Below, in pieces: positions 14,482 through 48,818 of a stretch of 64,000 nt of DNA (positions are counted from its first letter, which is position 1; the number at the start of each line of letters is the position of its first letter). The notes below the pieces were generated by a model. The model was not told the DNA's origin. It saw only the letters and a program-made list of their open reading frames with translations, and did not search any database. Location of the stretch: NCBI GenBank assembly GCA_963735035.1, contig CAVTJJ010000004.1, positions 480,001-544,000 of the forward strand. Direction: 5' to 3'. The translations under genes were made by a program, and so were the position numbers. Origin of the DNA: an uncultured candidate division Zixibacteria bacterium (lineage in GTDB: Bacteria > Zixibacteria > MSB-5A5 > GN15 > FEB-12).

Positions 14482-15997
<1,516 letters not shown>

Positions 15998-16143: not shown

Positions 16144-16551
16144 TTAGTCGAGGAATTCAAGAAGGCGCAGAGTCAGGTAGTCTACATCTCTCGTTTGACA
16201 TTCCCAAACCACTAAGTAGTTCCAGCCCATGGCATGAAGTCGGCGGTGGTTACGGTGATCCCTTGCGACGTTGGAGCGGCGCTTGGAAGCCCAATAGACA
16301 GGATTCGTCTGAGGGGTTACCATGCCTCGGCGGCAACAGTGCATGTGCCAGAAGCACCCATTCACAAAAATGACCTTCTTATGTCGCGGAAAGACGATGT
16401 CTGGTTTTCCAGGGAGATTTGTGACGTGAAGGCGATATCGAAATCCAATGCAGTGGGCAAACCGACGCACCACCATTTCTGGCTTTGTGTCAACGGAGCG
16501 TATCGCCTTCATGTTCTTGCGACGCTCCGTTGCTGTCAAATTATCTGCCAT
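16144..16551 (-). CDS. vsr: Very short patch repair endonuclease
   Basis: DTKPE, LPGKPD, FVNGCFWH, VVWEC motifs. Confidence 0.93.
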   Translation of the reverse strand: MADNLTATERRKNMKAIRSVDTKPEMVVRRFAHCIGFRYRLHVTNLPGKPDIVFPRHKKVIFVNGCFWHMHCCRRGMVTPQTNPVYWASKRRSNVARDHRNHRRLHAMGWNYLVVWECQTRDVDYLTLRLLEFLD

Positions 16552-16558
16552 CGACGGA

Positions 16559-17527
16559 TTACACTGCGAAATCCATGTAGTAGGTTTCGTCGTCTATCTT
16601 GTAGAAGACAACATCTGTGCGGCCATATCGCTCAAGATGTTCCCTGAGCAGATACGTTCCTAAAGGGACAGAAAGTCGATTTCTGAAGTACTCACCCAAG
16701 AGACTGTTGTTGTGAGGGGTGTGAATTGCCTTATCATTGTCTTGCGCGCGCGAACAAATGAATACTTTCCCATCATCCGTTAGAACCGTAAACTGAATAG
16801 CCTTCGGAGGGAAGAAGTCTGACTTGTATACTTCGGCACGCAAATTGATATAAGCCTGATTCGGCTCGCGCCCTTCCCGTTGTCCCCAATTGAGACCAGA
16901 GTGCGTGCCAAGTTCACCTGTACGTGTAACAAATGAAACACGCACAGACCGCAACCCGACTACATTTGGTGAGACCGCATCCATTTCCTCTGTCGCTGTC
17001 CTTATCAGTTCTCGGCGGCGTCTGTAAAGGTCCTCATTGAAGACAGTTACAAATGCCTCGGCATCTTGATGCGTGCAGTAAATGGTCTCATTGCACAACT
17101 CTTGGTAATAGCGGCGCGCATCTTCGGCTGGAGCCATCGTCAGGGCTTCTCTTTGGTTTTCTCCGAATGCGGTCTGAGTATAATTAGCCGATCCAACATA
17201 GGCAGACAACGGTCTGTCTTCGCGAAGCCAGATATATACCTTTGAATGCGCGGGTGGACGTTTGACGAGATAACTACACTCAAAGATTCCCGGGAAATCT
17301 TGCTCAACAAGTTTGCATAACCCTCTGTGATTTCCAACAGTCAAGCCGTCGACTGGACACATACCAACGATGAGCCCGACTCTAATGTTATCACGAATGG
17401 TCTTGGCTTCAGAAATGTGCCTAAATGCCATGGCTGCAGTCGCATACCCGGATACAACAAGGAGTTCATCTGCCCCTTGACGCAACGGGTCTATGAGAAC
17501 CCGTTCATAAAGATCTGTCACAATCAT
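16559..17527 (-). CDS. PLD-family (NgoFVII-like) restriction endonuclease
   Basis: VSGYAT, HSKVY, GSANYT PLD motifs; SGLNWG C-terminal region; lies between MTase and vsr. Confidence 0.8.
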   Translation of the reverse strand: MIVTDLYERVLIDPLRQGADELLVVSGYATAAMAFRHISEAKTIRDNIRVGLIVGMCPVDGLTVGNHRGLCKLVEQDFPGIFECSYLVKRPPAHSKVYIWLREDRPLSAYVGSANYTQTAFGENQREALTMAPAEDARRYYQELCNETIYCTHQDAEAFVTVFNEDLYRRRRELIRTATEEMDAVSPNVVGLRSVRVSFVTRTGELGTHSGLNWGQREGREPNQAYINLRAEVYKSDFFPPKAIQFTVLTDDGKVFICSRAQDNDKAIHTPHNNSLLGEYFRNRLSVPLGTYLLREHLERYGRTDVVFYKIDDETYYMDFAV

Positions 17528-18618
17528 ACCAACAATGCCTTGTCTACTGGTACTGACATATTAGCCTCGACGTATTCATATGGCACACCCGCAAGACTCT
17601 TTAGAATAGCTTCAAACACAACCTTGGCACCAAGCGGAGGGACTGCCATTCCGATCTGCTTTCTTACACTCTCCTTGGATCCGCAGAAGATGAAATCATC
17701 TGGAAAGGTTTGTAACCTTGCTCTTTCGCGGTTAGTTAGAGCCCGATTTTCTTTCCAATGGTAGACATGTGTGCCGCCCCCCCCGCTGCCTGTCACCGTG
17801 TAAGAAGGCTTATCTGGATGCAGACGCTTATATATCTGGCTAATACGTGCTCCGGTAATGTTAAGCTGTAGATTTTGTGGCACATTGGCTGTGAAGGCGT
17901 TCTCTCCGGGCTTTATGTATTTCAACCGCTCGATTACCACAGGTGATTGTTTTGTGAAGTCGTGGTTGGGGGCATCTACAGCAATCGGCGGGTCAGTAAG
18001 CGCTTTTCGGCTAGAGATGTCTGCTTCGGTGAAACGACTCGGCGACGGTACTTGATACTTGATATCAATATCGTCTCTGATTCCTACAATAAGAATCCTG
18101 TGGCGCGTTTGCGGGACGCCGTATTGCTCGAACTTATATAGGTTTGGATATAGGCGGTATCCTTTGTGGATAAACGCCAGCATAATTGCCTCAAGCGCAT
18201 TACCATCGTTCGAATTCCTCAGCCCCCCGACATTCTCAGCTAAGAACCACGTAGGTCTAAAATGGGCCAGAGCAAGCGCGCAGTACTTGTATAGCGGCCC
18301 AAATACTCCGTCCGTGCCTTTCTGCTCGCCGACAACGCTGAAATCGTTGCAGGGAAAGCCGAACGCAAGCGCATCGACGGGGGAAATCTTGTCGAGAACC
18401 CTAAAGTCCAGCTTTCTAATGTCCTTGCAGACCACTCTTCGTTTGTCTTCTGTTGATAAATTCTTGCGATAGGTTTCGCACGTGTCTTTGTCGTAGTCTG
18501 TTGCCCAGGCTAATCCGACCGCGTGAGCCTTTGTGGTTCCTGTAGCTCCCGCCAATTTGGCCCCCAGCCCCAACCCGCCGGGCCCGCAAAAGAGTTCACC
18601 TAACTTGTAAATCATCAC
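17524..18618 (-). CDS. dcm: DNA (cytosine-5) methyltransferase
   Basis: Motifs I FCGPGG, IV GFPC, VI ENV, VIII QTRHR, IX RERARLQTFPD, X QIGMAVPP. Confidence 0.95.
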   Translation of the reverse strand: MMIYKLGELFCGPGGLGLGAKLAGATGTTKAHAVGLAWATDYDKDTCETYRKNLSTEDKRRVVCKDIRKLDFRVLDKISPVDALAFGFPCNDFSVVGEQKGTDGVFGPLYKYCALALAHFRPTWFLAENVGGLRNSNDGNALEAIMLAFIHKGYRLYPNLYKFEQYGVPQTRHRILIVGIRDDIDIKYQVPSPSRFTEADISSRKALTDPPIAVDAPNHDFTKQSPVVIERLKYIKPGENAFTANVPQNLQLNITGARISQIYKRLHPDKPSYTVTGSGGGGTHVYHWKENRALTNRERARLQTFPDDFIFCGSKESVRKQIGMAVPPLGAKVVFEAILKSLAGVPYEYVEANMSVPVDKALLV

Positions 18619-18800: not shown

Positions 18801-19661
18801 ATGACAGACTATAAATCAGAAGAAGCCGACAAGCTCCTCGGCCAGGAATTCAAAGTCCTCGACCACGGGTTCGTCCGACTCGTCGATTTCATGGGCGACG
18901 ACGGCGCCATTGTCCAGGCCGCCCGGGTCAGCTACGGCAAAGGGACCAAGAAAGTCTCCCGCGACCGCGAGCTCATCCGCTACCTGCTCGGCCACCAGCA
19001 CACGTCGCCGTTCGAAATGGTCGAGTTCAAGTTTCATGTCAAGCTCCCCATTTTTGTCGCGCGGCAGTGGATTCGCCACCGGACCGCCAATGTCAACGAA
19101 TACTCCGGCCGCTACTCGGTCATGAAAGAGGAATTCTACCAGCCGGAACCCGACCAGATCAGGCTGCAGTCCGAGGTCAACAAGCAGGGGCGCTCCGATG
19201 ACCCCGCACCGGCCGAACTTCGCGACGACTTCCTCACGCACTCAACCGAAATGCAGAAGCGGGCGTACGAGAAGTACAACGGATACCTTACGGCCGGTCT
19301 CGCCCGCGAACTGGCGCGAGTCAATCTGCCGCTCTCGCTTTACACCGAGTGGTATTGGAAGATCGACCTGCACAATCTGATGCATTTCCTGAAGCTTCGG
19401 ATCGACCCTCACGCCCAGTACGAAATCCGTCAGTACGCCCTCGCCATGGGGGAGATAGTCAAGGTCGTCTGCCCGATCACGTGGGAGGCGTTCGAGGATT
19501 ACATTCTGAAAGCGCAGCGCTTCTCGGCGATCGAGTTACGCATTCTCAAGAAGACGCTCGACGGTTTTGCGTCGAATCAAGAAGCGCTGGTGGAGGCGGG
19601 GCTGTCGACGCTTGAAGCGGCAGAGTTTATCGACAAGCTGGGGAAGATTAAGAAGTTGTAG
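18801..19661 (+). CDS. thyX: FAD-dependent thymidylate synthase
   Basis: AARVSY, HTSPFE, RQWIRHR...NEYSGRY, RELAR..LP, HAQYEIR motifs. Confidence 0.97.
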   Translation: MTDYKSEEADKLLGQEFKVLDHGFVRLVDFMGDDGAIVQAARVSYGKGTKKVSRDRELIRYLLGHQHTSPFEMVEFKFHVKLPIFVARQWIRHRTANVNEYSGRYSVMKEEFYQPEPDQIRLQSEVNKQGRSDDPAPAELRDDFLTHSTEMQKRAYEKYNGYLTAGLARELARVNLPLSLYTEWYWKIDLHNLMHFLKLRIDPHAQYEIRQYALAMGEIVKVVCPITWEAFEDYILKAQRFSAIELRILKKTLDGFASNQEALVEAGLSTLEAAEFIDKLGKIKKL

Positions 19662-20230: not shown

Positions 20231-20302
20231 TCGTAGGTCAGGCGGACTTGACGCCTGACGTGGCGAGGCGAAAATGTCAGGCCCCGAGTTGGCCTGACCT
20301 AC
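20231..20302. repeat. REP doublet (REPIN-like) GTAGGTCAGGCGG...GGCCTGACCTAC
   Basis: Near-identical copies at 20931-21053 and 38563-38740. Confidence 0.75.
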
Positions 20303-20480
20303 TGGGATAAGCACCCCGTCTTCTTGTGGCAGTTGCAGAATTGAGACGTGAGTATCTGTCACCTGAAATTATTGCGTATGCGAGATACTCAAAGAAGTCC
20401 GGTACGCAAAAAGTCTTTCATAACAACTGTTAATATCGACGGGCGATTCACGAATTGGGGACGGACAAGCTACATATTCC

Positions 20481-20509
20481 TTGACAGGAGGAGCCGTCCG
20501 AATTATCTT
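20481..20509 (+). promoter_or_regulatory. Sigma70-type promoter TTGACA-N17-TATCTT
   Basis: Consensus -35, 17-nt spacer; the same -10 hexamer occurs at three other intergenic sites. Confidence 0.7.
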
Positions 20510-20514
20510 GGCAT

Positions 20515-20868
20515 TAGTCGGGGACCGACTGCCTAATTTTAGGTGTTGGTCGCCGCAGGACGATTGGACGATTGAAAGGTAAACCGCAGAGGGAGTACGT
20601 TGGAAGATTGATAAAGCTCCACCATCTTCAGATTGATCCTTGGTTAAACCACCCACCTATCTAATTAATCAAGGTCATGGTACCCCTTGCGGTTTACCTC
20701 GTCTAAACCGCTGTCCTGAACGCCATACTTAAGAACCTGACTGAGTCAGCGGGTCCAAGTTAGAAATCTTGGCCTGTGGAGACAGGGTCATCGGTACGCA
20801 TGGTTCGGTATGCGACGTTACTAATTCGTGGGACGTCGGATGGCTGGGGTTGTTCGGCACCACCACAT
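20515..20868 (+). ncRNA. Putative large structured non-coding RNA (unassigned family)
   Basis: Bounded by promoter and terminator; no credible ORF; multiple long complementary helices. Confidence 0.6.
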
Positions 20869-20905
20869 AAGATGGTCCTGCTTCGGCAGGGCCATCTTTC
20901 TTTTT
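20869..20905 (+). terminator. Intrinsic terminator
   Basis: AAGATGGTCCTGC-TTCG-GCAGGGCCATCTT followed by TCTTTTT. Confidence 0.85.
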
Positions 20906-20930
20906 GTGCGAGGAAGTGTGGTGCAAGTTC

Positions 20931-21053
20931 GTAGGTCAGGCGGACTTGACGCCTGACGTGGCGAGGCGAAGTTGTTAGGCCCCGAGTCGGCCTGACCTAC
21001 GAAGTGTTCTCGGGCGAGGCGAAGATGTCAGGCCCCGAGTAGGCCTGACCTAC
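20931..21053. repeat. REP doublet cluster
   Basis: GTAGGTCAGGC...GCCTGACCTAC palindromes. Confidence 0.75.
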
Positions 21054-21343
21054 GCAGAGCTGTCCGCTCGCAAGTCCACCACGGTCGCGCCACAGCCGCC
21101 GCCGGAACCGGACTCGTGACGGAACGATGCCACCGCCGGATGATCTTTCAACAAGCTGCGAACAATCTCCCGCTGTACGCCAATACCCTTGCCGTGAATG
21201 ATTCGTAGGGTGTATATGCGACGTTTCAAGCATTCTTCGATGTAGTCATTCACGACATCGCGGGTTTCGCTCGGAGTGAACTGGTGCAGATCGAGGGTGC
21301 CGTCGATCGGGTATTCGATTGGTTCGTCGTGTTCGTTTGTCAT
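21050..21343 (-). CDS. Smr/MutS2 domain protein
   Basis: LDLHQF, IIHGKG.G, GGCGATVV motifs. Confidence 0.9.
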   Translation of the reverse strand: MTNEHDEPIEYPIDGTLDLHQFTPSETRDVVNDYIEECLKRRIYTLRIIHGKGIGVQREIVRSLLKDHPAVASFRHESGSGGGCGATVVDLRADSSA

Positions 21344-38427: not shown

Positions 38428-38776
38428 GGAGTGTTGAAGAAGCCCCCTTCCTGTCATCGCGAGTCTCGACTGCGCTTCGCGGGCGAGACGTGGCGATCTC
38501 AATTCCGTGGGCGGCAGACCTCCTGGTCTGCCCCGTATGCCGGCCACAACGAGCTTGAGCCTTGTAGGTCAGGCCCACTCGGGGCCTGACATCTTCGCTC
38601 GCCGCGTCAGGCGTCAAGTCCGCCAGACCTACGATTGTTCTGTACCTACTGCTCCGAGTCGGGCAAGCCTTGTAGGTCAGGCCTACTCGGGGCCTGACAT
38701 CTTCGCTCGCCGCGTCAGGCGTCAAGTCCGCCTGACCTACGATTGTTCTATACCTACTTCCCCGAGTCGGGCAAGT
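38428..38776. repeat. REP mosaic including a ~109-bp tandem REP doublet
   Basis: Two copies of GTAGGTCAGGCC...GTCAAGTCCGCC.GACCTAC. Confidence 0.8.
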
Positions 38777-46184: not shown

Positions 46185-48818
46185 CTACTTCAGCAACATC
46201 ATCTTTCGTGTTTGAATCTCATCGCCTGCCCGCACGCGATAGAAATATATCCCCGACGCCACGGGTCGACCTGATGCGTCGGATCCATTCCACACTGCCG
46301 TATATTCACCGGCCGGCTGGTTCCGGTTCACGAGTGTTGCAACTCTTTGCCCCAGCAGATTGAATACCGAGACGTTGACATCGGCCCGTTTCGGAAGCGC
46401 ATACCTGATGGTAGTCGATGGATTGAACGGGTTGGGGTAGTTTTGAGCGACAAGGAACTCTGTCGGCAGAGTCGCAATGTCCTCGTCGTCCAAGTCGGTC
46501 GGTGTGTTTTCCCAAAGCAAGATGTCGCGAAGAACGGAGATTGAGTTGAGACGGTCGGTCCCTTGTCCTACGGCCATTTTGAATAGAACCTGCTGAGTGT
46601 CACCGGGACGGAATGTGAATGGTCCGAAAGAGGCCATCATGCGCCGGTCAGACGGGGTATTGTCGATCCAGCCGGTAGCAGTTACAGGGTCACCTGAGTT
46701 CACGAATCGTGTGGGTTGCCCCGTAGTAGGGTTGTAGTACGGTGCGCCGTCATTCTTCGCTTCTAAGCCCATCATGTATTGATACGATTGGACATACCAA
46801 TCCGGGTCAGTGCCATTTATGTACTTGTTGAATGAGTACATGCCAAGGTTCTTGTAATTTGGTAGCGGACGGCCATCAACCATGGCGGAGTCGGCGGAGT
46901 AGCCGGTGTACACGACCGGTCCTTCCAGTACCTTGAAACCAATCGCTGGCGGTACGCCCTGATATTGGGCATCATAATCGGTGGCGTTGTAGCAGAAGAA
47001 CAGGTTGTTCAGAGTATCACACCCGACCAGATCGTCGCCTGCCGAGCCGAGATCGGGATCGAGCCAGAGGCTTAGGAAGAAGTCGTTGAGGGTGCGGTTG
47101 CCCTTGTTAATCAACTTGTACCGCAGAAGAAGGGACACATCTTCCGCTGTCGTTGTGGGATCGGCGATCGGGTCCGGGGCTTTGAAGAAGAATGTATCGG
47201 CCGGTGTGAGAGAGTAGCCCTCACCGGGGATTATCAGGAACTCATCACCATCTTCAAAGACACAGTTGCTGCCTCGCCTGGCCCAGGTTGCCCAGTACAT
47301 AATCGGCATTTGGATGTCGTTCAGAGGATTCAGCTCGAACTCAGCGTTTGGCGTCTCGCTGTAGTCGGCCATATAGATCCATAACCATTCACGAGGTCCG
47401 TTGACGGCTGCATTTGTAGTGCCGAGTGCAGTAAGCGAGTCACTGTCCGGGGGCCAGTACTTACCGTCAACCGTACCGAGCTCAACGTTGTTCTCCAGGA
47501 ATCCAACCGTCAGCCGACGGGGTGGATCGACACTCATGTCCCAGGCCGAAAGAGGCACATTCTTCTCAAAAGCCTGGAAATCATACGAAGCGTCGGTGTT
47601 GAAGATGAACGGCGCAAATTCCTGCTTGGCTGGGGGGGTCTGACAACCGCGCATGTAGCGGTAGCCGTAGGACACGTTTGTATCCCCCGGATCAAAATTA
47701 CCCACCGAGTCAACCTTGGCCAGCTTTAGAAGCACTTCCGGTAAATCGAGATAGCTTATCGCCGCGGGCTCACCATTGAAGTACGCATACGGATCGGCCC
47801 AGCCCAGCGCTCCGTTGAATCCTTCAAATCCGTAATCTGCCTGCGCCCAGGTGAAGCGACGCGTGCCGCCGGGTATGGTCCAATCAGTAACTCCTATATG
47901 CCCTGAATCTGCAACAGCTACTTGCAGGCCGTCAACGGACGGTGAAGGAGCACCACCGGACCGATCTGACATGCCTGTCAATTTGGTCTCGCCCGTCGTC
48001 CTGTCAATCAGATCCCAAGTTCCCCCACTTGAAGAATCGGCCGTGAAGATCACCATGTAATCATGACCATTCAAGAGGGACGGCTGGTTAGCAAAGACTC
48101 GCACCGAGCCACCGCCGGACCCGACATGCTGAACTTCAATTGTCGGAGGCAAATCGATGATGGTGCCTTTGCTTGACCAGACGGTTTGCTGAACCTCGAT
48201 CCCCATCGGTGCGGTTGAGCCGGCGTCGCTCGTGTGCTCGGCGGGATCGGCGTCGTTGTAAACGGTCCACGTCATCTGGTCGCCTCTCATTTCGGGGGCG
48301 CCGTAGCCGTCAACCGGCGCGCCCTGGGTGACCGGCCAATCTTGATAGTCCTGATTCGGGTTATCGGCCAGGCTATCACTGTAGAGCTTGTAAACTCGGA
48401 ACTCAGGTCGGTCAGTCTGATAGGTACCGCCAGCCATCGGTCCCGGCACGTACTCGCTGCTATACTCAGCAATAGTAACCAGGGTGTCATTGGTCGCCGC
48501 GTCTACACCGCCCAGCCAGAGTCCTCCGGCATACAGTGGTGAGGTCGTATTTGCGCCGGACTGAATGTCAGCGACAGTAGTAAAGGGGAAGTACGTTCCA
48601 TAATCGTTCCCAAAGACGCCAGCCAGATCACGGCCGAAATTGCCGTGGTTGGTGACAAACATTAGAATCCGATTAGCGTTGATGAAGGTAGTGTTGTCAA
48701 TTGTCTGAGATGTTGGAGCGGAAACCTGACGTTTCTCCGGGGGGAGCGACAAGCTCTGTGATACAAGAGCGAGCGAGAAGAAGGCAGTAAGGAACCAATG
48801 CGTGAATTGGCGGTTCAT
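46185..48818 (-). CDS. Large secreted protein with T9SS-A/FlgD-like C-terminal domain
   Basis: Signal peptide; QNYPNPFNP...WNG...ASGIYFYR...KMMLLK tail. Confidence 0.88.
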   Translation of the reverse strand: MNRQFTHWFLTAFFSLALVSQSLSLPPEKRQVSAPTSQTIDNTTFINANRILMFVTNHGNFGRDLAGVFGNDYGTYFPFTTVADIQSGANTTSPLYAGGLWLGGVDAATNDTLVTIAEYSSEYVPGPMAGGTYQTDRPEFRVYKLYSDSLADNPNQDYQDWPVTQGAPVDGYGAPEMRGDQMTWTVYNDADPAEHTSDAGSTAPMGIEVQQTVWSSKGTIIDLPPTIEVQHVGSGGGSVRVFANQPSLLNGHDYMVIFTADSSSGGTWDLIDRTTGETKLTGMSDRSGGAPSPSVDGLQVAVADSGHIGVTDWTIPGGTRRFTWAQADYGFEGFNGALGWADPYAYFNGEPAAISYLDLPEVLLKLAKVDSVGNFDPGDTNVSYGYRYMRGCQTPPAKQEFAPFIFNTDASYDFQAFEKNVPLSAWDMSVDPPRRLTVGFLENNVELGTVDGKYWPPDSDSLTALGTTNAAVNGPREWLWIYMADYSETPNAEFELNPLNDIQMPIMYWATWARRGSNCVFEDGDEFLIIPGEGYSLTPADTFFFKAPDPIADPTTTAEDVSLLLRYKLINKGNRTLNDFFLSLWLDPDLGSAGDDLVGCDTLNNLFFCYNATDYDAQYQGVPPAIGFKVLEGPVVYTGYSADSAMVDGRPLPNYKNLGMYSFNKYINGTDPDWYVQSYQYMMGLEAKNDGAPYYNPTTGQPTRFVNSGDPVTATGWIDNTPSDRRMMASFGPFTFRPGDTQQVLFKMAVGQGTDRLNSISVLRDILLWENTPTDLDDEDIATLPTEFLVAQNYPNPFNPSTTIRYALPKRADVNVSVFNLLGQRVATLVNRNQPAGEYTAVWNGSDASGRPVASGIYFYRVRAGDEIQTRKMMLLK

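Follow-up and report, generated by a model that had tools for sequence, protein, structure and literature searches.

Structured leader RNAs stand before a number of long surface genes, for example the EAR RNA of the Bacillus eps operon, the put RNA of phage HK022 and the leaders acted on by UpxY or LoaP. Similarly, cyclic di-GMP (c-di-GMP) riboswitches of classes I and II occur before adhesin or pilus genes, and some leaders give rise to independent RNAs, as with SreA and SreB of Listeria and RNAs of the EutX/Rli55 type. Here we compare with these systems a transcription unit of an uncultured candidate division Zixibacteria bacterium, located at positions 20481-20905 of a 64,000-nucleotide (nt) stretch of its genome (the window). 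An initial annotation, made from the sequence alone, had described an orphan noncoding unit of about 390 nt and had proposed for it either an expanded 6S-like RNA or an undescribed large class of noncoding RNA. We favor a different reading, to which we assign a probability of about 0.72: the unit is homologous to both ends of a single gene locus, preserved whole in sister genera within the family, and its leader is natively cis-regulatory. The first end is a promoter followed by a conserved three-way-junction leader RNA, and the second the last ~18 codons of a secreted, repeat-rich protein of ~2970 residues with a type IX secretion sorting domain. What remains would be transcribed from the old promoter and would stop at a terminator partly made of old codons.

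Like the EAR, put and UpxY/LoaP leaders, the Zixibacteria leader is a promoter-driven, conserved, structured RNA directly before a gene of about 9 kb for a surface or secreted product; unlike them, it matches no Rfam family, no antitermination factor gene is seen beside it, and the window copy stands without a downstream gene. With the c-di-GMP riboswitches it has in common a three-way junction with conserved unpaired nucleotides in the 5′ untranslated region (UTR) of an adhesin-like gene, and in three relatives (G029, G063 and G131; we designate genomes by G, and loci and metagenome contigs by L) the 3′ strand of helix P1 could pair alternatively with a short downstream hairpin. However, it matches no GEMM or other riboswitch model, and its putative expression platform is weak. 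As with SreA/SreB and EutX/Rli55, a leader element runs into a terminator and would form an independent small transcript, but in those cases the downstream gene is present, whereas in the window it has been deleted, part of its last codons now forming the 3′ hairpin and the terminator. The features of the unit, in window positions, are as follows.

20481-20509, + strand: sigma-70-type promoter (TTGACA 20481-86, 17-nt spacer, TATCTT 20504-09; 10/12 in a consensus scan)
20511-20555, + strand: lineage-specific 5′ hairpins, poorly conserved (13-22 of 42-45 aligned bases identical to relatives)
20556-20718, + strand: conserved leader core, a three-way junction (132-137 bits with covariance models R1 and R2), with helices P0 (20556-61/20713-18), P1 (20577-87/20689-99), P2 (20589-98/20680-88), P3 (20603-08/20624-29) and P4 (20638-47/20665-74) and the invariant P4 loop motif ACCTATCT (20655-62)
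20719-20827, + strand: variable middle domain D3, a long irregular hairpin that holds a conserved GCCTGTGG hairpin (20771-20784 region)
20834-20886, + strand: D4 hairpin, the frameshifted remnant of the giant gene's sorting domain (last ~18 codons, from nucleotide alignment with G029 and G103), which also supplies the 5′ arm of the terminator
20869-20905, + strand: intrinsic terminator (13-bp stem 20869-20898, TTCG loop, TCTTTTT run; found by scan)

The element is present once in the genome that carries the window (G000; 3.6 Mb in 6 contigs, 96.9% complete). Its relatives were found only within one family. A blastn search returned a copy in G002, which belongs to the same genus, and, weakly, one in G007, of another genus. 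Covariance modelling of the 5′ core (R1, later R2) was positive in 6 of 108 family genomes, representing 5 of 47 genera. In a phylum-wide sample the model was positive in five of 151 genomes, all five of one family, and in none of the 96 genomes from 18 other families. Scanning public contigs, both genomic and metagenomic, for sequence patterns brought in another six metagenome copies, and the distinct core sequences number 11 in total. The homolog search that the initial annotation had called for thus yielded copies in a genus-mate, in sister genera and in metagenome contigs.

These copies come in two architectures. The long form consists of its own promoter, the core, a variable middle, a highly conserved 3′ block (...GTCGGATGGCTGGGG..TCTGGCACCACCAAAGATGG) and a terminator, and is found in G000, G002 and G007 as well as in metagenome contigs L110, L111, L112 (cut by the contig end), L114/L115 and L117. 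In the short form, found in G029, G014 and G063, a same-strand gene for a signal-peptide protein comes next after the core, no more than about 45-120 nt away. An exact-stem pattern scan gave eight matches, about the chance level by our estimate, of which two were genuine, and model R2 gave two weak matches on 29 thyX loci. By eye, diverged copies could be read in the thyX-downstream intergenic regions of five of eight displayed loci, with weak model scores or none. With filters off, weak matches (10-20 bits) lay on the giant-gene strand in five of six loci; four of the five coincide with the element read by eye, and the match in L140 lies elsewhere. Alignments of the diverged copies were too uncertain for a third model to be built from them.

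In sister genera the leader is still followed by an intact gene. This gene encodes 2970 residues in G029 and 2966 in G014, on the same strand as the core, and its product combines a signal peptide, a DUF4114 domain close to the beginning, immunoglobulin (Ig)-like repeats and a C-terminal sorting domain (in G029, Pfam Por_Secre_tail, PF18962, 47.8 bits). The gene is followed by a terminator and then by smr on the opposite strand, and in G014 also by a pepF-like start. Indeed, the sister-genera neighborhood of thyX, leader, gene, smr and pepF is the order found in the window (thyX, RNA, smr on the minus strand, pepF) with the gene removed. The flanking genes in the window are:

18801-19661, + strand: thyX, upstream neighbor (Pfam Thy1, 200.6 bits), which also precedes the leader in G029, G063, G007, L111 and L112
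21050-21349, - strand: smr, convergent downstream neighbor (Pfam Smr, 77.3 bits), also found behind the intact giant gene in G029 and G014

The other end of the gene was recognized through the conserved 3′ block. Its pattern matched in 27 of 108 family genomes, as against one match for the reversed control pattern, and in G103 the match lies at the end of a real gene whose protein C-terminus carries the type IX secretion sorting-domain signature. Window positions 20834-20886 and the last ~18 codons of the intact G029 and G103 genes line up nucleotide by nucleotide. This homology to the PF18962-encoding sequence is at the nucleotide level; the window piece is frameshifted and the rest of the domain is gone. 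Specifically, RRMAGVV can be read from 20834 and APPHKMVLLRQ in another frame from 20857; the frameshift lies between 20854 and 20857, there is no upstream open reading frame (ORF), and neither an intact frame nor a stop codon is found at the gene end. Its shortness and broken frames put the piece beyond the reach of a Pfam test. Other collapsed copies retain clearer traces. Blastn of gene 3′ ends against the RNAs aligned G085 at 71% over 108 nt (E 1e-9), G007 at 80% over 50 nt and G002, of the window's genus, at 76% over 49 nt. With a real sorting domain as query, tblastn found KIEWDAARYTSGV-LLRLVAG in G085, followed one frame over by SATRKMELRK and a stop, and weaker pieces in G007 and in the RNAs of type A, the collapsed forms that include the window's; the latter read ..RRMAGVSGTTK and PPKMVLLR in two frames. 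Elsewhere in 20400-21000, tblastn detected no remnant of the giant protein at E <= 1.

The orphan's origin is thereby explained, because its 5′ core corresponds to the leader, and its 3′ block to the last codons, of a gene that is intact in sister genera. No orthologue of the giant gene's N-terminus was found in G000, where the only matches were to Ig repeats in another ORF, and this together with the aligned last codons indicates that the orphan is leader plus gene end, with the coding sequence between them gone. In all, ~8.7 kb of coding sequence has been lost in the window and in at least nine other lineages. The collapsed form is not an assembly artefact, since it recurs in independent assemblies and metagenome contigs, namely in G002 and in the separate contigs L110, L111, L114/L115 and L117. 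The extent of the remnant differs, from about 35 codons in G085 and G080 to about 18 in type A, which suggests repeated or continuing decay. The locus offers a clean natural example of how an orphan noncoding RNA unit can originate, an internal deletion leaving behind a leader, last codons and a terminator. A small protein encoded in the 3′ block was considered and rejected: the block is noncoding now, because a 1-nt indel separates L114 (GGGGTTGTCTGG) from L117 and L110 (GGGGTATCTGG). Only short ORFs overlap the unit (at most 52 residues on the plus strand and 95 on the minus strand). The initial annotation was right in seeing no credible ORF, but the 3′ 55 nt are decayed coding sequence.

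Two further loci in this genome recall the giant protein. The 3128-residue frame with Ig-like repeats at C4:1241598-1247681 (+) is the sole giant-adhesin resemblance in G000 and is not an orthologue. Within the window, positions 46188-46469 (-) encode the C-terminus of another sorting-domain protein (Por_Secre_tail 35.9 bits, FlgD_ig 44.8 bits), and the giant proteins of relatives match this sorting-domain end.

The leader itself is a new structured RNA motif, absent from Rfam, that travels with the giant gene. Residues 1-300 of the G029 protein have orthologues in 18 family genomes (E <= 1e-69). When R2 was run with filters off, the core lay directly upstream, on the same strand, of 10 of these 18 orthologous giant genes (E <= 1), and full-length genes behind the leader were confirmed in G029 and G014. 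Placement in the 5′ UTR before one consistent class of gene is thus found in the relatives and not for the window copy, from which the gene is deleted. Compensatory changes of the kind that the initial annotation had proposed to look for were seen among these homologs. In the 11 distinct cores, aligned to fit the model structure, 90.0% of cells fell in standard pairs, compared with 39-49% when the partners were slid, and four pairs had changed on both sides. In eight further leaders that had not entered model building, likewise aligned to the model, 83.2% of cells were paired (39-51% when slid) and 17 of 31 pairs had changed on both sides (1-9 when slid), values reached by 0 of 500 shuffles. 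The best-supported helix is P2, in which 6 of 7 pairs are compensated. Conserved unpaired or loop elements are GGACGAU on the 5′ side of P1, (A)UGGA(C/A)GAUUG(C/U)U(C/A)A in P3 and (AC)CUAUCU in the P4 loop. Structured 5′ leaders and gene stumps are both known as kinds. The specific motif and its link to giant type IX secretion adhesins in Zixibacteria are absent from Rfam, and a limited search of the literature did not reveal them either. In this sense the finding is of a structured RNA motif new to the databases and tied to 9-kb secreted adhesins of an uncultured phylum.

In the 5′ domain, folding of the window RNA agrees with the structure drawn in the initial annotation. Positions 20511-20905 fold on the plus strand with -162.1 kcal/mol (z = -6.3), a value that none of 100 shuffles comes up to, in line with the description of the unit as highly structured; the minus strand of the same interval gives z = -3.4. 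The core (20556-20718), folded alone, gives z = -5.3 and the fold as it had been drawn, with all of the nested helices found: CAGGAC/GTCCTG (20556-61/20713-18), GGACGA/TCGTCT, the 12-bp helix AGGTAAACCGCA/TGCGGTTTACCT (20577-88/20688-99), GTAC/GTAC and the arms GAAGAT/ATCTTC and CCTTGGTTAA/TTAATCAAGG. In the seven full-length relatives the folds are branched, consisting of the core, a long hairpin, a 3′ hairpin and the terminator. Several other proposed pairings find no support in relatives. The closing stem GGTGTTG/CGGCACC is specific to G000 and absent from relatives, the GTCATC/GATGGC helix is not kept as a pairing, and the CGCAT..ATGCG hairpin is unsupported and competes with a long-range helix that the relatives do keep. 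The same holds for both suggested pseudoknots: in relatives GTGGG at 20828 is replaced by GGAGG or GATGG, and CTCCAC, the loop of P3, has not been conserved. At the position of the 5′ hairpins (20511-20555) relatives carry a different hairpin, AGGG..CCCU. D3 is identical to type-A relatives at 43-52 of 108-109 aligned positions, in a heavily gapped alignment; its basal helix keeps 9, 9 and 8 of 9 pairs in three in-register relatives, with two double changes from G-C to A-U, and in the window it occupies the corresponding place with another sequence.

Promoter and terminator both lie where the initial annotation had placed them, and a consensus scan finds each, although such scans return 2 promoter-like sites (1.2 +/- 1.1 expected) and 5 terminator-like sites (2.0 +/- 1.5 expected). 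The pattern TTGACA-17-TAnnnT recurs at equal distance in all nine long-form relatives displayed and, judged by eye, a promoter stands before intact-gene leaders too. The terminator has 31-34 of 37 bases identical in four type-A relatives. There is also a weak hint of expression. In RNA-library runs (four of four, from four studies), contigs of relatives, 90-291 nt long and 80-97% identical, match within 20537-20762, and one of them additionally reaches 20834-20851; in the sequencing-run listing for the region all shares are small (0.07-0.12). No such contigs cover 20300-20536 or 20865-20981, a gap that is uninformative because these flanks are not conserved in relatives.

The question of what the unit does now was approached by comparing G000 with L111, whose gene order is identical, in MAFFT alignments with the four-fold sites of thyX as neutral yardstick. 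Identities were:

thyX four-fold sites: 70/106 identical, 66%
core: 132/158 identical, 84%
3′ hairpin D4: 31/37 identical, 84%
terminator: 34/37 identical, 92%
5′ hairpins: 13/45 identical, 29%
middle domain D3: 52/108 identical, 48%

The deletion is probably older than the divergence of type A, because the type-A forms have one collapsed architecture in common, and the core, remnant hairpin and terminator would therefore have been kept since then. These three parts are probably under purifying selection, on balance with a free-RNA function retained or gained. The parts that remain conserved after the gene was lost can thus be read directly from the comparison.

A second conserved element, which we call class 2, was found via the 3′-block pattern. 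It is ~70 nt long, is very strongly conserved and reads GGGAGUGGUGGAGGGGGGAUGCCCGACUCUAACGUCAGGUGGCUGG-NNNN-CCAGCRCGCACCACUCCC, with a closing stem GGGAGUGGUG/CACCACUCCC and an inner hairpin GCUGG/CCAGC around a variable 4-nt loop; it folds into a closed three-way junction and has no match in Rfam. It occurs in 18 family genomes, and its 23-nt core pattern in 85 public contigs, mostly with Zixiibacteriota, Zixibacteria, GN15 or Ignavibacteria-type titles, and also in several untitled contigs and in one record each of Bacteroidetes and Calditrichota. Each genome carries two copies (relatives L171-L199), those of G000 lying outside the window:

C6:545676-545757, - strand: class 2 copy L201
C2:96702-96769, + strand: class 2 copy L202

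One of the two is divergent beside a HAMP-PAS-HisKA histidine kinase gene. The other ends a gene-free stretch of ~330 nt (L202 about 1180-1500; also in L198/L199), in which some blocks are conserved between genera and after which a GGTCCGG..CCGGACC hairpin follows the copy; the leader core was not found in this stretch, which may be another long noncoding unit or a gene stump. The ordered class 2 blocks (GAGUGG, GAUGCC, CGUC.G..GGCUGG, CAGC, CCAC) resemble sorting-domain codons and the D4 hairpin, a likeness that may reflect common descent.

Selection on the orphan bears on the strongest competitor of the leader-and-remnant reading, in which the leader and the remnant were co-opted after gene loss as a free-standing RNA of ~390 nt acting in trans. 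We regard this as a serious minority possibility. Such an RNA might act via the invariant C-rich loop CCACCCACCUAUCU or via its class 2-like 3′ hairpin. Consistent with it, lineages without the gene have conserved the core, D4 and terminator better than the synonymous sites of thyX, the D3 basal helix is kept by the two double changes, D4 resembles the strongly conserved class 2 element, and type-A relatives share the P0 pairing AGGAC/GUCCU and a GCCUGUGG hairpin, which intact-gene leaders lack. However, it has no known target, partner or phenotype, the drift of D3 and of the 5′ hairpins is as fast as neutral sites or faster, and the class 2 resemblance may be mere shared descent from sorting-domain codons; moreover, internal deletions in a repeat-rich gene would leave both ends behind without any selection. 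The bolder combination, in which the leader belongs to a new riboswitch or RNA-polymerase-modifying class for giant adhesins and the orphan is a selected new RNA, built from leader and coding stump, with a 3′ hairpin that is kin of the phylum-wide class 2 element and may even have a partner in common with it, we consider somewhat more doubtful still.

An unlikely further explanation is that the unit is a functionless pseudogene stump, its structure inherited and its transcription continuing because the promoter has not yet decayed. The gene-stump origin, the poor conservation of the 5′ hairpins and D3, and the varying extent of the remnant between genera (with the repeated or continuing decay that this suggests) are what such a relic would look like, but the -35 box is perfect, the core, D4 and terminator stand at 84-92% identity against 66% at neighboring synonymous sites, and the collapsed form is common to at least five diverged type-A lineages. 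The reverse polarity, with an ancestral RNA of ~390 nt into which the giant gene was inserted in other lineages, is very improbable. Both forms do occur within one family; still, the 3′ block is in frame and part of a Pfam-recognized domain in intact genes, it is frameshifted in the RNAs and in type-A forms, including the window's, also lacks a stop, and decay from coding to noncoding is the sole simple direction.

The proposals of the initial annotation concerning RNA class were evaluated against known families. At gathering scores no Rfam model matched anywhere in the window, and at E <= 10 the interval 20300-21100 gave three chance-level matches only (E 5.6-9.7), so the Rfam comparison that had been suggested leaves a structured RNA with its own promoter and terminator that matches no described family. 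The exclusion of housekeeping RNAs by the initial annotation was borne out: ARAGORN found no transfer RNA or transfer-messenger RNA (tmRNA) in the window, and elsewhere in G000 lie RNase P RNA (C3:153829-154197, 273.8 bits), tmRNA (C3:964901-965271, 183.7 bits) and signal recognition particle RNA (C3:180114-180214, 72 bits). The idea of an undescribed large noncoding class survives in part: the structured RNA is new, but the unit is the leader of a giant gene joined to a remnant of its last codons. For annotation this suggests comparing orphan RNAs with both ends of long neighboring genes in relatives before a new class is named. An expanded 6S-like RNA that binds the RNA polymerase holoenzyme is scarcely credible, for although the window unit is, like 6S RNA, abundant-looking, strongly promoted, highly paired and noncoding, and searches of the whole G000 genome with RF00013 and RF01685 found no 6S RNA elsewhere (weak tests, whose controls recovered no more than 5 and 1, respectively, of 14 known genomes), no 6S model matches it, its conserved fold is branched rather than a rod with a central bubble, its closing stem is unconserved, its 395 nt are twice the 6S length of about 180-200 nt, it is confined to one family (none of the 96 genomes from elsewhere in the phylum sample), and its homologous core is an mRNA leader in relatives.

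Returning to the leader-and-remnant reading, the native job of the leader would be cis-regulation of the giant adhesin gene, and two options can be envisaged, which we consider about equally likely. The leader could be a ligand- or protein-sensing switch in which P1 and P2 would form in competition with either a hairpin downstream or the ribosome-binding site. The P2 5′ strand GGAGGGAG is Shine-Dalgarno-like and its partner, CUCCUCC or a similar sequence, is anti-Shine-Dalgarno-like, so that the partner could instead mask the true downstream ribosome-binding site. By eye, short hairpins that share the P1 3′ strand (ACCUAU/AUAGGU, CCUUAUG/CAUAAGG, ACCU/AGGU) and are followed by U-rich tracts can be drawn in G029, G063 and G131, although they are weak. 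Alternatively, the leader could render RNA polymerase termination-resistant across the 9-kb gene; antitermination leaders occur before long surface-polysaccharide operons. The leader offers a defined starting point in the search for new mechanisms of sensing or antitermination. A CsrA sponge was also considered and rejected: G000 encodes CsrA, but the approximately 10 GGA motifs counted by eye in ~390 nt of a relative are, by a rough estimate, about what composition would give.

Several points weigh against the leader-and-remnant reading. The case for a cis-regulatory role is one of position and conservation, and the candidate downstream hairpins are short and AU-rich, with no clear terminator/antiterminator pair. 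Eight of the 18 orthologous giant genes lack an upstream model match at E <= 1, which could be due to divergence, contig ends or true absence, and the fitting of the pair-count alignments to the model structure inflates the pairing. The window remnant taken by itself is unscorable (tblastn returns only KMVLLR at E 6.5, and blastn nothing at E <= 0.01), its homology being drawn from the multiple alignment and from the genus-mate G002. The argument for selection uses a single neutral yardstick, thyX four-fold sites, which are sensitive to codon bias, together with MAFFT alignments, and deletions between repeats in the giant gene would leave both ends regardless. Finally, the evidence from RNA libraries consists of assembled contigs that derive from relatives (80-97% identical), and DNA may be present in libraries of this kind.

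Three other observations concern the surroundings of the unit. REP-like (repetitive extragenic palindromic) repeats with ends GTAGGTCAGGC...GCCTGACCTAC lie on both sides of the RNA and recur elsewhere in the window, with 11 matches against 0.6 expected:

window 19964, 20233/20292, 20931/20990, 21043, 38564-38740 and 42247: REP-like palindromic repeats

Adjoining thyX upstream is a restriction-modification cluster encoding a Vsr mismatch endonuclease, an NgoFVII-type restriction enzyme and a C-5 cytosine methyltransferase (window 16144-18618, - strand). Beyond it, at 14482-15997 (-), two overlapping ORFs of 495 and 246 residues resemble a single peptidase frameshifted near 15200, a reading judged from the translations alone, in which the tail of the longer ORF seems to be out of frame.

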